Assembly: GCA_050259635.1 (NCBI GenBank)
Contig: JBLNBA010000002.1
Location: 26,681 to 90,680 of the forward strand
DNA: 64,000 nt
Source of the DNA: Bacillota bacterium
Lineage (GTDB): Bacteria > Patescibacteriota > Patescibacteriia > Patescibacteriales > UBA12465
Reading direction: 5' to 3'
This document shows positions 8,786 to 41,267 of this stretch, piece after piece. How positions within the stretch are numbered: the stretch's first letter is position 1; every line of letters starts with the position of its first letter. A model generated the notes under the pieces. The model was not told where the DNA came from. It was given only the letters and a program-made list of their open reading frames with translations, and did no database searches. Made by a program: the position numbers and the translations under genes.

Positions 8786-8859
8786 TGGGCCCGGCCCGAC
8801 TCGAACGGGCGACCTTTACGATGTCAACGTAACGCTCTAACCAACTGAGCTACGAGCCC
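8786..8859 (-). tRNA. tRNA-Val (GAC)
   Basis: Hand-folded cloverleaf. Acceptor GGGCTCG/CGGGCCC, anticodon loop TTGACAT, T-loop GTTCGAGTC. No encoded CCA. Confidence 0.9.
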
Positions 8860-8910
8860 TTTATTTCCCTATTATATTGTATAGGTGCGAAATTGGCAAA
8901 TGACGGAAAG

Positions 8911-8984
8911 TGCGCCTAGATGGACTTGAACCATCGACCCCCGCTTTATAAGAGCGGTGCTCTGACCACCTGAGCTATAGGCGC
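8911..8984 (-). tRNA. tRNA-Ile (UAU)
   Basis: Hand-folded. Acceptor GCGCCTA/TAGGCGC, anticodon stem CCGCT/AGCGG, loop CTTATAA (anticodon TAT), T-loop GTTCAAGTC. The body resembles tRNA-Ile2. No encoded CCA. Confidence 0.85.
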
Positions 8985-23592: not shown

Positions 23593-23664
23593 TCGGGCTG
23601 CCCGGAATTGAACCGGGATCACACGCACCCGAAGCGTGTATAATAGCCTTTATACCACAGCCCG
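23593..23664 (-). tRNA. tRNA-Pro (CGG)
   Basis: Acceptor CGGGCTG/CAGCCCG (C1:G72), anticodon loop TTCGGGT, T-loop GTTCAATTC. No CCA. Confidence 0.88.
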
Positions 23665-23669
23665 CGTTG

Positions 23670-23742
23670 TGGACTTGAGGGGACTCGAACCCCTTACCTC
23701 TGCAATGCGAATGCAGCGCTCTACCAGATGAGCTACAAGCCC
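23670..23742 (-). tRNA. tRNA-Ala (CGC)
   Basis: Acceptor GGGCTTG/CAAGTCC with the G3:U70 identity pair. Anticodon loop TTCGCAT. No CCA. Confidence 0.9.
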
Positions 23743-23753
23743 CTGATAATCCG

Positions 23754-23824
23754 TCGGGGTGCCGGGAATTGAACCCGGGCTACATGCACCCCATGCATGC
23801 GTACTACCGTTATACTACACCCCG
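23754..23824 (-). tRNA. tRNA-Pro (GGG)
   Basis: Acceptor CGGGGTG/CACCCCG, anticodon loop ATGGGGT, T-loop GTTCAATTC. No CCA. Confidence 0.88.
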
Positions 23825-24979: not shown

Positions 24980-25038
24980 ATTATCAGGGTTAATAAAAAA
25001 GGCGCTCTTTCTAAGCGCTGTAAAGAGCTTTACTTTAT

Positions 25039-25083: not shown

Positions 25084-26478
25084 TTAACGATCTCTATTGC
25101 GTTCAGAACGAGAATTATCATTGTTGTCGTGCCCGCGGTGTTTGCCGTTATTGCCATTCTTCATCTGGCCATAATGGTTGCCATTATTACCGTTATTCTT
25201 TTGCTGGTAGATATTACCATCATTGGTATCGGAGTCATTTGAACCGGAGCCGATCGTGGTGATCGTTACCGTATTGGATTCGCCCGACATATTGCCTCTC
25301 ATGTCGTAAGCTCGGACATAGTAAGAATAGGCGGTTGAAGCGGATAAGCCGTTATCGACGAAAGTGGTAGAGTAATCGATATTGGCTAACCATTCTCCAT
25401 TCCGATAGATGTTGTATCCGACGACTTCCACATTGTCAGTAGAGGCGGTCCAAGAGAGCTTAGCGCTATGAGCGGAAGAGTTGCTTACCGTTAGGTTGGT
25501 CGGAGCGCTCGGAGCGATGGTGTCGTTCTCGAACCAAGATTCAGATCCGGAGGTGAAGACGAGATTAGATTGTCCGGAGACATTTCCCCTCTCGTCATAG
25601 GCTCTCACGAAATACGAGTAGCCGTGGTTCGGGTTGATACCGGTGTCAGTGAAGGAGTTTGTCGTACTAATGGCAATCCAGTCTCCATTACGGTAGATGC
25701 TGTAGCCAGCAACGCCGACTGCGTCCGTTGAGGCGGTCCAGCCAAGCTTCACACTATTGCTGGAGGTGGCGGTAATGGATAAATTTGTTGGAGTGCTTGG
25801 TGCGATGACGTCCGGGCTATTACTTATTTCAGCCAGAGTAGAAATGCTAAGGGTATTTGAGCTGTTCGATAGGTTGCCTTTGGCGTCATAGGCTCTGATA
25901 AAGAAGGAATAAGTGGTGGATGCTTTCAGGCCGGAAAGCTTGAAACTGGTTGAGGAAGTGCTAGCCAGCCATGTGCCATCTTTATATATATTATATCCTG
26001 TAACTCCTACATTATCAGTTGAGGCGGTCCAGCCAAGGTTGATTTCCGTCGGTGAGACGGCAACGCCTACCAAGGCAGAAGGAGCAGTGGGCATGGTCGT
26101 GTCAGTAGTAGTGGCAGCGCCTGTCGTGATCATGACCTGGGCAGTGGAACTGGAATTATTTCCGTTTGCATCGAATGCGTAAATCGAATAGGCATAGGTC
26201 GTGCTAGCGACTACAGAAGAGTCCAGATATGAAGTGCTGGTAGCGGTGGCAATGACCGAATTCCCCCTTAATACCTTATAGCCCGATACCCCGGTATTGT
26301 CTGTTGAGGCGGTCCAGCCTAAGGAAACTTGATTGGAAGCATTAAGAGACGCGGCCAGATTCGTCGGGACCGTGGGTGGCGTGGTGTCATCTAAAGCCAG
26401 AACCTTAAGGGCTGTAAATGGCATCACGGCGAGGAAAAACGCCAATAGAACTCCTAAGAATTTATTGAATTTTTTCAT
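25084..26478 (-). CDS. secreted/anchored protein with four fibronectin type III repeats and an Asn/Gly/His-rich tail
   Basis: Signal/anchor MKKFNKFLGVLLAFFLAVMPF. Four repeats of about 90 aa, each with LGWTASTDNxGVxGYxIYRNG...Y.Y.VRAYD..GN. ATG 26478 is chosen; the track start at 26547 would lie upstream of the predicted promoter. Confidence 0.85.
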   Translation of the reverse strand: MKKFNKFLGVLLAFFLAVMPFTALKVLALDDTTPPTVPTNLAASLNASNQVSLGWTASTDNTGVSGYKVLRGNSVIATATSTSYLDSSVVASTTYAYSIYAFDANGNNSSSTAQVMITTGAATTTDTTMPTAPSALVGVAVSPTEINLGWTASTDNVGVTGYNIYKDGTWLASTSSTSFKLSGLKASTTYSFFIRAYDAKGNLSNSSNTLSISTLAEISNSPDVIAPSTPTNLSITATSSNSVKLGWTASTDAVGVAGYSIYRNGDWIAISTTNSFTDTGINPNHGYSYFVRAYDERGNVSGQSNLVFTSGSESWFENDTIAPSAPTNLTVSNSSAHSAKLSWTASTDNVEVVGYNIYRNGEWLANIDYSTTFVDNGLSASTAYSYYVRAYDMRGNMSGESNTVTITTIGSGSNDSDTNDGNIYQQKNNGNNGNHYGQMKNGNNGKHRGHDNNDNSRSERNRDR

Positions 26479-26526
26479 AAATTTATAAAAATTAATTATT
26501 AGCTCTTGTTTTTGGCTTGTGTAATA

Positions 26527-26555
26527 TAATACAAGCCAGATTGTCATTTGTTACA
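26527..26555 (-). promoter_or_regulatory. putative ECF-type promoter driving the FN3 protein gene
   Basis: On the minus strand, TGTAACAAAT-N13-GTATTA (that is, TGTAAC-N17-GTAT). The architecture is identical to 26589-26617. Confidence 0.5.
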
Positions 26556-26569
26556 CGCAGGTATATAAT
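26541..26569 (+). promoter_or_regulatory. sigma70-type promoter for the sigma/anti-sigma operon
   Basis: TTGTCA-N17-TATAAT. Confidence 0.5.
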
Positions 26570-26588
26570 AATTTGACCCTTAAGGGCT

Positions 26589-26617
26589 TGTAACAAATAG
26601 AGGGGAAAGCGGTATTA
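26589..26617 (+). promoter_or_regulatory. putative ECF-type autoregulatory promoter
   Basis: TGTAACAAAT (26589-26598), N13, GTATTA (26612-26617). Lies 17 nt before the sigma gene ATG. Confidence 0.5.
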
Positions 26618-26634
26618 ATAAATAGGCGAAACAA

Positions 26635-27144
26635 ATGCTGAAAAATAGGGATAATTTCCTTACTCATTACAACCAGTTCAAGGACAAGATATTCAACTAT
26701 TTTCTTTATCGGACTGGCTTTGATCGAGCTTTAGCGGAAGATTTGACTTCTGAGGTTTTCATGAAGGCCTTAAAAGCTTATGACGGCTTCGATCGCAATA
26801 AGCCTTTCCAGCCCTGGATTTTTACAATCGCTCATAATCATCTGATTAACCATTACAGCCAAGCCGCTAAAGCTACATTTCCCCTGGATGAGTTTGAGGA
26901 CCTGATGCCAGAAGAGGACAACCATGAGGTAGAAATAAGATACGAGGTGGAACAAGTTATGAAGGCGATGGAATCGATGAGCTTTAGTGATCAGGAAGTC
27001 CTGAAACTAAAATTCATCGAGCAGTTGGATAATCAGGAGATAACTGAGATCCTCGATAAGGACGAGGGGGCGGTTAGGACTCAGATCAGCCGCTGTTTGA
27101 AACGATTGCGTCGGATTTTAGGAGATATGAATAAGATTGAATAA
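26635..27144 (+). CDS. ECF-family RNA polymerase sigma factor
   Basis: 169 aa. Region 2 (DLTSEVFMKALKAYDGFD...FQPWIFTIAHNHLINHY) and region 4 HTH (LDNQEITEILDKDEGAVRTQISRCLKRLR). Confidence 0.9.
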   Translation: MLKNRDNFLTHYNQFKDKIFNYFLYRTGFDRALAEDLTSEVFMKALKAYDGFDRNKPFQPWIFTIAHNHLINHYSQAAKATFPLDEFEDLMPEEDNHEVEIRYEVEQVMKAMESMSFSDQEVLKLKFIEQLDNQEITEILDKDEGAVRTQISRCLKRLRRILGDMNKIE

Positions 27145-27145
27145 A

Positions 27146-27880
27146 ATGGATAATTTAGAAAAAATATTAATGGCGTTGCCGGAGAATAAGCTTAGTCGCA
27201 AGGCGGACAGGCTGATTAAGTTCAGGCTGGAAAAGACGATGGTTTTATCGTATTTTAAACGCGTAGCTGAGGGGCCACAAGTTCCTTGGCCTAGAGCCAT
27301 TGTCGCCGGGCTTGCCCTGTTCATGATTTTTATCGCCACTTCCGTCTATGCTTATGCGAGCGATAAGATTTTGCCCGGCGACCGGATATATCCTCTTAAG
27401 CGGGCGGTAGAAAAGATTGAAGAAGCCGTTACTCCGGGTACCGCCAAGATCAAGGTATATGAAAAGCATTCTTCTCGGAGATTACAGGAGGCGCGCGATT
27501 TGAGCACCAAGACGGCCGCCGTATCCGAAAAAAGCGCGGAAGAGAAGGCAAAGGACAGCGAAAATATAAAAAAGAATATTGATTCAGCCGTAATTAAACA
27601 GCAGGCCATCGTGGAAAAGATAAATAAGCTGGATGATTATGACAAGGCGGTAAAGACCATCGATAAAGCGAAAAAAGCAGATAAAAAAAAGACCGAGTAT
27701 CTCGGCCAGATTATTAATAACGCTAAGACAGAAAAGGATGAAGAAAGAATAAAGAAGGCTGAGCAGGCATATGAGTCGATAGATAAAGCGGAGTATAAGG
27801 TTAAGGACAAGAAGATAAAAGAAGAAAAAGTGAAAGAAGACAAGGGGGATAAAGGAGGAAGGAATAAGGAGAAATATTAA
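27146..27880 (+). CDS. putative anti-sigma factor (single TM, Lys-rich extracytoplasmic domain)
   Basis: Starts directly after the sigma gene stop (TTG 27137 is an alternative start). Short cytoplasmic N-terminus, TM AIVAGLALFMIFIATSVYAYA, then PGDRIYPLKRAVEKIEE and a Lys/Glu-rich domain. Confidence 0.65.
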   Translation: MDNLEKILMALPENKLSRKADRLIKFRLEKTMVLSYFKRVAEGPQVPWPRAIVAGLALFMIFIATSVYAYASDKILPGDRIYPLKRAVEKIEEAVTPGTAKIKVYEKHSSRRLQEARDLSTKTAAVSEKSAEEKAKDSENIKKNIDSAVIKQQAIVEKINKLDDYDKAVKTIDKAKKADKKKTEYLGQIINNAKTEKDEERIKKAEQAYESIDKAEYKVKDKKIKEEKVKEDKGDKGGRNKEKY

Positions 27881-28700: not shown

Positions 28701-30178
<1,478 letters not shown>

Positions 30179-30229
30179 TAGTATAGAGATCATCGGTCCC
30201 GAAGGACTGATGAAAAGATTCTGGTTGAT

Positions 30230-40151: not shown

Positions 40152-41267
40152 ATGGAAACTACATTTGTCATTTTCTTCCTGCTAGTCTTTGCCGGCATTA
40201 TTGCTGTTATTTTCCTTTTAATCCGCCGTGGCGAAGGAGGCGCCGAGCAGTCTTCCGCCTTATTGGAACGGTTGGCCCAACAGTCCGAGAAATTGACTCA
40301 GCTATCAGTGCAGAATGGCGAGCTTAGGATAGAATTGGACTATAAGCTCAGCGAGACGCACCGGGCAACCCAAGGGCAGTTCGAACAGACGACGCGGGTG
40401 ATCCAGAATATCACCGGCCAATCCGCCAAGCTCATTGCTGACGTGACCGAAAAGCTCGCCAAGCTTGATGAAACCAATAAGCAGGTTGTAAATTTTTCCT
40501 CGCAGCTGCAGAATCTGCAAGACATCCTGAAGAACCCCAAGCAGCGCGGCGTCCTGGGAGAATTTTATCTCGAAGAGACCTTGAAGAACGTCCTGCCCCC
40601 CAAGTCTTATGCCCTTCAGTATAAGCTTGGTAAGAGCGAAAAGACGGGCAAGGACCTGATCGTGGACGCCGTGGTCTTCGTGAAAGACAAGATCATTCCC
40701 GTTGACGCCAAATTCTCTTTGGAGAACTACGAGCGCCTGTTGAATACGAGCGACCCGGAAGCCCGCAAGAAGATCGAGGCGCAGTTCAAGCAGGATCTTA
40801 AAAACCGGATCGATGAGACCGCGAAATATGTAATGCCTGAAATGGGGACGATGGAATTCGCCTTCATGTTCATTCCCTCTGAAGCCATATATTATGACCT
40901 CCTCGTAAATTCTGTCGGCGCCGTGAAGGTGAACACCCGGGATCTTATTGAATATGCTTTCCGTGACAAGAAAGTCATTATCGTTTCGCCAACATCTTTC
41001 CTGGCGTATCTCCAAACGGTCTTACAAGGCCTCAAGGCTATGCAGATTGAGGAAAAAGCTATAGAAATAAAGGCCAATATCGAGAAACTGGGAAAGCATA
41101 TGCTTTCTTATGATGAATTCTTGCGCAAACTCGGCTCGAGTCTTTCGGTGTCGGTGAGCCATTATAATAATGCCTATCATGAGTTCAAGAAGATTGATAA
41201 GGATGTGGTCAAGATTACGGGAGGCGAAAGCCAGATTGAGCCGGTGAAAATCGAGGCTCCTAAATAA
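40152..41267 (+). CDS. rmuC: DNA recombination protein RmuC
   Basis: 371 aa. N-terminal TM, a coiled coil, and an RmuC nuclease-like core (VDAVVF...IPVDAKF...MFIPSEAIY). Confidence 0.88.
   Translation: METTFVIFFLLVFAGIIAVIFLLIRRGEGGAEQSSALLERLAQQSEKLTQLSVQNGELRIELDYKLSETHRATQGQFEQTTRVIQNITGQSAKLIADVTEKLAKLDETNKQVVNFSSQLQNLQDILKNPKQRGVLGEFYLEETLKNVLPPKSYALQYKLGKSEKTGKDLIVDAVVFVKDKIIPVDAKFSLENYERLLNTSDPEARKKIEAQFKQDLKNRIDETAKYVMPEMGTMEFAFMFIPSEAIYYDLLVNSVGAVKVNTRDLIEYAFRDKKVIIVSPTSFLAYLQTVLQGLKAMQIEEKAIEIKANIEKLGKHMLSYDEFLRKLGSSLSVSVSHYNNAYHEFKKIDKDVVKITGGESQIEPVKIEAPK

Follow-up and report, generated by a model that had tools for sequence, protein, structure and literature searches.

Mirror-image ECF-type promoters as a candidate link between a sigma factor operon and a divergent gene for a secreted FN3 protein in Patescibacteria

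A divergent intergenic region of 156 bp (positions 26479–26634) in the DNA analysed here, a stretch of 64,000 nucleotides referred to throughout as the window, very probably contains three promoters: two cognate ECF promoters that mirror each other on opposite strands, and one sigma70-type promoter, P1. To the right of the region, on the plus strand, is the gene for a 169-aa ECF (group IV) sigma factor (26635–27144), followed, 1 nt past its stop codon, by the start of the gene for a single-pass membrane protein with a DUF5667 ectodomain (27146–27880). To the left, on the minus strand, is the gene for a secreted protein of 464 aa with a signal peptide, four FN3 domains (Pfam fn3 x4) and a charged C-terminal tail (25084–26478). 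An earlier sequence-only reading, which had the length of the intergenic region right, proposed that mirror-image ECF-type promoters couple the sigma operon to the divergent FN3 gene, and phylogenetic footprinting supports the proposal. We infer that the sigma factor encoded at this locus reads the motif, and that the FN3 gene is a target of this sigma factor.

The two ECF-type promoters have the same 29-nt architecture, TGTAACAAAT, N13, GTATTA, and the sequence reads on both strands exactly as had been claimed. In P2, the promoter of the sigma/DUF5667 operon (26589–26617, plus strand), TGTAACAAAT occupies 26589–26598, the -35 hexamer TGTAAC being 26589–26594, and a 13-nt spacer separates it from the -10 hexamer, GTATTA, at 26612–26617. 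In the FN3 promoter (26527–26555, minus strand), TGTAACAAAT runs from 26555 to 26546, with TGTAAC at 26555–26550, and GTATTA follows at 26532–26527, again after 13 nt. The end of the plus copy is 17 nt from the sigma ATG at 26635, the distance first reported. The minus copy does adjoin the FN3 gene; its distance to the ATG at 26478, claimed to be about 45 nt, was measured as 48 nt. From the positions of the hexamers, transcription would be expected to start at about 26623–26625 from P2, giving a leader of about 10 nt, and at about 26520 from the FN3 promoter, giving a leader of about 40 nt.

The motif is rare. TGTAAC-N17-GTAT has two matches in the 64-kb window, where 0.01 would be expected, and the two copies described above are the only ones; none of 100 shuffles of the window contained at least two matches. 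A weight matrix was then built only from 22 sites of other genomes, with the window sites left out. It scored the minus copy at 27.0 bits and the plus copy at 21.5 bits; nothing else in the 64 kb scored above 12.5 bits. The best matrix score per shuffle averaged 13.8 bits, and the highest was 22.3 bits (50 shuffles). Relaxed regular expressions and the weight matrix together yielded no convincing third target in the 64-kb window.

The motif is also conserved in position, orientation and spacing, and it is linked to both genes. Related loci, designated L001 and so on, were gathered from genome contigs, metagenome contigs and exact-protein look-ups, and alignment across these related genomes, a check that had been suggested with the original proposal, found the motif kept in about 15 orthologous regions. 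Upstream of the Patescibacteria relatives of the sigma gene (36–64% identity, about 15 independent loci), the sigma-proximal TGTAAC-N17-GTA(T/C) ends 7–21 nt before the sigma start codon. The TGTAAC site is present at this place in L001–L004, L067–L072, L148, L150, L151, L153, L155, L156 and L157; the exception is L154, which has GGTAAC in place of TGTAAC at the same sigma-proximal position. A mirror copy precedes a divergent signal-peptide/FN3 gene in 13 loci (L001, L002, L067, L068/L156, L069/L070, L148, L150, L151, L153, L154 and L157), and each site is oriented toward its own gene. An alignment of 27 sites, drawn from about 15 relatives, shows next to no variation in TGTAAC or GTA and a free spacer sequence, the gap from TGTAAC to GTA being exactly 17 nt in all 27. 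When eight intergenic regions were aligned with MAFFT, the ATG and the promoter hexamers accounted for all of the invariant columns. The arrangement of an FN3 gene opposite divergent sigma and DUF5667 genes is itself kept amid otherwise unrelated neighbours.

These comparisons bear directly on whether the strand-to-strand match is simply a functionless coincidence in AT-rich intergenic DNA. The full 16-base pattern, with three mismatches allowed, is expected 0.36 times in the window, which would leave some room for coincidence, but both window copies are exact matches, the core pattern has the expectation of 0.01 given above, and the motif persists in the orthologous regions. Coincidence is effectively refuted by the comparative data, and we assign it a negligible probability. 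A scan of both strands of the related loci, 160,592 bases, found no sites of at least 14 bits besides the sigma-proximal and FN3-proximal ones. The claim of a two-target regulon holds within the 64-kb window and the roughly 160 kb of related loci, and for these only.

The two copies might instead be half-sites of one large palindromic operator, TAATAC-N13-ATTTGTTACA ... TGTAACAAAT-N13-GTATTA, bound by a dimeric or tetrameric transcription factor that controls both genes. The copies do form a true inverted repeat, with arms at 26546–26558 and 26586–26598 that are 92% complementary, and shared operators are common at divergent promoters. A palindromic operator is hard to reconcile, however, with the lone copies found in relatives where the genes are arranged differently. 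L003, where no FN3 gene lies on the divergent side, has just the sigma-proximal copy. The FN3 orthologue of L155 is located 4.6 kb from the sigma gene and carries TGTAACAAAT-N13-GTACCA 39 nt before its ATG; the L155 sigma gene retains its own copy of the motif, behind a terminator and a sigma70-type promoter. That the L155 FN3 gene has moved away and yet keeps the motif argues against a simple palindromic operator. Further, the distance between the copies varies: in the relatives the minus-copy TGTAAC is found anywhere from 63 to 136 nt upstream of the sigma ATG. The 17-nt gap within each copy, by contrast, is constant, and the neighbourhood lacks a conserved transcription factor gene. We judge the operator very unlikely, and continue with the reading of the copies as two separate ECF promoters.

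The third promoter of the region, P1 (TTGTCA-N17-TATAAT; 26541–26569, plus strand), would be a sigma70-type promoter of the sigma operon. It matches the consensus at 11 of 12 positions and is the best sigma70 consensus match in the 3.7 kb scanned. Its hexamers are 17 nt apart upstream of the gene, within the 16–18 nt of sigma70-type promoters. Both the presence of this separate promoter and its overlap with the FN3 promoter had been recognised in the first reading and were borne out. P1 is kept in place in L001, L002, L067, L148, L150, L151, L154 and L157 (TTGTCA or TTGTTT, N17, TATAAT); in L069 and L155 its position has changed, and the promoter is still present. The overlap with the FN3 promoter is 15 bp, the -35 of P1 falling within the spacer of the opposite-strand FN3 promoter, so the two presumably could not be occupied simultaneously. 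Extra conservation of 'ACAAT' is seen in the FN3-proximal copies only, because the P1 -35 hexamer sits in their spacer, and it is lost in L155, where the two promoters no longer overlap.

With a sigma70-type promoter so close by, it may be asked if the mirror-image sites are themselves ordinary weak sigma70 promoters, shifted one base to the right and reading GTAACA-N17-TATTA(T/A). The minus-strand site, GTAACA-N17-TATTAT, has 9 of 12 matches in the consensus scan, and the organism's intergenic DNA is AT-rich. The sigma70 consensus does not, however, call for the essentially invariant T-G-T-A-A-C or the G of GTA. Under the shifted reading the critical last T of the -10 would be an A in 9 of the 15 sigma-proximal sites, the -35 would be without TTG, and P1, a far better sigma70 promoter at 11/12, adjoins and is conserved separately. 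Weak sigma70 promoters are, in our estimate, just as improbable as the operator. A caveat to the preferred ECF reading is that the -10 is GTAT, unlike the CGT that is typical of many ECF promoters.

Several other elements of the region were noted. A near-palindrome of 26 bp, TGGCTTGTGTAAT|ATAATACAAGCCA (26513–26538), covers the -10 and the predicted start of the FN3 promoter, with a fold z of -3.8. Inverted repeats that include the -10 are also found, with other loop lengths, in L067, L068 and L150, and not in all relatives. The near-palindrome, or hairpin, over the FN3 -10 was considered as a defining part of the system and rejected: it is significant in the window but patchily conserved. An Rfam scan of the intergenic region found no RNA family. 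A 14-nt direct repeat, GA(A/C)CCTTAAGGGCT, which contains the palindrome CCTTAAGG, is present at 26400–26413, within the FN3 signal-peptide coding region, and at 26575–26588, between P1 and P2, where it falls about at the predicted P1 start, near 26576. In L067 the place equivalent to the direct repeat holds a CCCAATTTGGGG palindrome.

The identification of the sigma factor as an ECF protein was confirmed. The only Pfam matches are to regions 2 and 4_2 (Sigma70_r2 and Sigma70_r4_2), and the protein passes TIGR02937 (sigma70-ECF) with 84.5 bits, the cut-off being 42.9. The best specific NCBIfam model is that of the BldN family, TIGR02952, with 113.5 bits, well below its cut-off of 206.45. Among solved structures BldN is again the nearest, in its complex with RsbN (6dxo). 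SigX, which had been brought in as the example to compare, gives way to BldN as the closest characterised relative; the SigX models NF007220 (72.9 bits, cut-off 260) and NF007222 (59.4 bits, cut-off 194) are far below their cut-offs. Taxon-named relatives of the sigma factor at 44–64% identity are all Patescibacteria, as are named relatives of the DUF5667 protein, every named close relative of the two proteins being assigned to Patescibacteria or Falkowbacteria. The label 'Bacillota bacterium' of the source MAG is, by these relatives, probably wrong. A literature search turned up no relevant work about ECF sigma factors of Patescibacteria or Parcubacteria.

Distant homologues of the sigma factor (31–37% identity) are from Dormibacterota and Chloroflexota. 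In nearly all of them GTAACC-N17-CGTT is found upstream of the sigma gene, and a single-pass membrane protein with a different ectodomain is encoded after it. On these comparisons the motif tracks sigma phylogeny, with TGTAAC-N17-GTAT in one clade versus GTAACC-N17-CGTT in the other. The covariation is relevant to another explanation, in which the sites are genuine ECF-type promoters but serve another ECF sigma factor, with its gene elsewhere in the genome, forming a cascade rather than an autoregulatory loop. The portion of the genome analysed is 64 kb, and there are ECF sigma genes whose transcription depends on other sigma factors. Yet the window has no second sigma-like ORF in its 64 kb, the motif accompanies the orthologue of this sigma factor in all relatives, and the motif changes along with the sigma lineage. 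We allow a cascade only a slim chance, if a slightly better one than the operator or weak sigma70 promoters. Autoregulation by the sigma factor encoded here is the preferred reading, and the conservation upstream of the sigma gene of a -35 with AAC and a -10 with GT, at a constant distance from each other, is what such autoregulation would predict.

The DUF5667 gene (Pfam DUF5667) directly follows the sigma gene in all the Patescibacteria loci that have an annotated or translated downstream gene, and the first 35 residues of its product, MDNLEKIL..LPKNKL, are conserved. The conserved adjacency and the membrane topology make the protein a candidate anti-sigma factor. In an AlphaFold model (pLDDT 76), helices at residues 2–9 and 18–42 precede a membrane helix (47–71) and a helical ectodomain (82–213). 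No known anti-sigma domain was found in the protein by Pfam, PDB sequence or fold. The PDB sequence search gave chance matches only, with no RsbN (6dxo) or other anti-sigma factor at E up to 10, and Foldseek, run with the model on the PDB, matched it to helical bundles of generic or designed type only, none at E ≤ 0.001. As far as the model goes, the Foldseek result speaks neither for nor against an anti-sigma fold and provides no structural support. No paper mentioning DUF5667 was found in the literature.

The start of the FN3 gene at ATG 26478 is backed by an independent gene caller, which gives the 464-aa product, and by orthologues, whose N-termini carry the same signal peptide; a further ATG upstream, at 26547, opens the ORF and was rejected in its favour. 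The orthologues have 1–6 FN3 repeats and the same signal peptide and tail. The sequence-only reading called the product a surface protein; this is supported as far as secretion, and an anchor motif was looked for and not found. After the gene there is a terminator-like hairpin followed by a T-run (25002–25018, minus strand), which suggests that the FN3 gene is transcribed alone.

The FN3 tail, which in the window forms the C-terminus encoded at 25084–25250, is charged and has 1–3 copies of the motif (N/K)G(N/K)H(F/L/Y)GQ. The window has, for example, NGNHYGQ and GKHRGH, and L154 has DKGNHFGQ three times; the motif is found in the tails of L148, L150, L151, L153, L154 and L157. No Pfam family covers the tail, which might serve for anchoring or metal binding. 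In L001 (3026–3826, minus strand) and L156 (3910–4800, minus strand), a secreted cytochrome b5-like haem-binding domain precedes a single FN3 domain, and these fusion genes are behind the same ECF-type promoter. In three relatives a conserved, cysteine-rich membrane protein with the motif CVYCSYFNNLLQYAVEISGRTERYWCPIKYA and without a Pfam match is encoded directly downstream of the FN3 gene (L150 2877–3551, L151 2837–3577 and L153 2824–3564, all on the minus strand); it is absent from the window.

How the locus compares with known systems may be considered first for Bacillus subtilis. SigX, SigM and SigW recognise promoters with a -35 of the TGTAAC or TGAAAC type, a 16–17-nt spacer and a GT-containing -10 (Helmann laboratory consensus), and for each of them the sigma and anti-sigma genes are in one operon. 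The sigX and sigM operons combine a housekeeping and an autoregulatory promoter. The locus described here is like these systems in its promoter type, in its operon of sigma and candidate anti-sigma genes, and in its apparent combination of a housekeeping with an autoregulatory promoter. It is unlike them in that all of their NCBIfam models score far below cut-off (for SigX, 72.9 against 260), in the type of anti-sigma factor, and in the divergent FN3 target, which is outside those regulons.

The Streptomyces pair sigma-BldN/RsbN (ECF121) supplies both the best specific family match, TIGR02952, and the closest structure, 6dxo. BldN recognises CGTAAC-N16-CGTTGA (PMC2375139). The -35 elements are nearly identical, CGTAAC for BldN versus TGTAAC here, and the distant homologues have GTAACC-N17-CGTT; the GTAAC of the -35 is shared, while the spacers are 16 versus 17 nt and the -10 elements CGTT versus GTAT. 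In both systems the partner, a candidate in the present case, is a single-pass membrane protein without a canonical anti-sigma domain, and the targets, here a predicted one, are secreted proteins. BldN drives genes for secreted surface proteins, the cell-surface chaplins and rodlins, under the control of an anti-sigma factor that is a membrane protein and has a non-canonical fold (PMC6101532). Against these likenesses, the TIGR02952 cut-off is missed (113.5 versus 206.45), the sigma factor here is without the N-terminal pro-extension of BldN, and the candidate anti-sigma factor is a DUF5667 protein without similarity to RsbN. The predicted target here is an FN3 protein, and the lineage is Patescibacteria.

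More generally, autoregulation is usual among ECF sigma factors, whose genes are usually found together with those for their regulators and targets (PMC7826278). The group-defining features of the generic ECF framework (Staron 2009; Casas-Pastor 2021) are all present at this locus (PMC7826278): a membrane partner, a conserved neighbourhood and, to judge from the conserved upstream motif, autoregulation. By these likenesses and differences, the system is one that would work like the BldN/RsbN and SigX/SigM/SigW operons but belongs to none of those equivalog families. The regulatory design is that of a textbook ECF system, with autoregulation and an adjacent target gene; what is new here is only its lineage, a DUF5667 protein as candidate partner and an FN3 protein as predicted target.

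A mechanism can be proposed along these lines. P1 would provide basal expression of the sigma factor and of the DUF5667 protein, the anti-sigma candidate, and the sigma factor would be held at the membrane by the short, conserved cytoplasmic N-terminus of the DUF5667 protein, 35–45 residues in length. An extracytoplasmic cue would free the sigma factor, and RNA polymerase loaded with it would fire both TGTAAC promoters. Firing of P2 would produce more sigma factor, i.e., positive autoregulation, and firing of the mirror copy would induce the FN3 protein. Occupancy of the FN3 promoter would probably exclude sigma70-polymerase from the overlapping P1. A bolder version, which we offer as speculation and think rather unlikely as a whole, is that the FN3, sigma and DUF5667 genes form a Patescibacteria-specific, lineage-wide module for envelope or contact sensing. 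In such a module the N-terminus of the DUF5667 protein would be a new anti-sigma class, the FN3 protein, with its unusual tail of GNH(F/L/Y)GQ repeats, would be the output and possibly also a ligand or partner of the sensor, and the overlap of P1 and the FN3 promoter would act as a toggle between basal and induced states; the module might control host attachment of episymbiotic cells.

Most Patescibacteria (the candidate phyla radiation) are uncultured, and for that reason their gene regulation has hardly been studied. The locus presents a clean, testable triplet of sigma factor, promoter and target that is conserved in many Patescibacteria. The sigma factor and its 29-nt promoter are suited to direct trial in a heterologous host, and in the FN3 protein there is a concrete candidate for a cell-surface function that can be induced.

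Some features of the wider window were also recorded. Of 21 gene starts in the window, almost none has a Shine-Dalgarno-like sequence, though the 16S rRNA ends ...GGAUCACCUCCUUUCU. Since most genes of the window are without one, the missing Shine-Dalgarno sequence of the sigma gene and its P2 leader of about 10 nt are unremarkable. In some genes TATAAT is only about 8 nt before the ATG (e.g., at 40152), and the arrangement of these gene starts suggests leaderless or short-leader mRNAs. A complete 16S rRNA gene is found by itself at 28701–30180 (minus strand); the window as a whole has no match to 23S rRNA. The tRNA genes are clustered, with two at 8786–8984 and three at 23593–23824, all on the minus strand, the cluster of three being located between a gene of the LytR-CpsA-Psr family and a gene for a class I (Trp/Tyr-type) tRNA synthetase.
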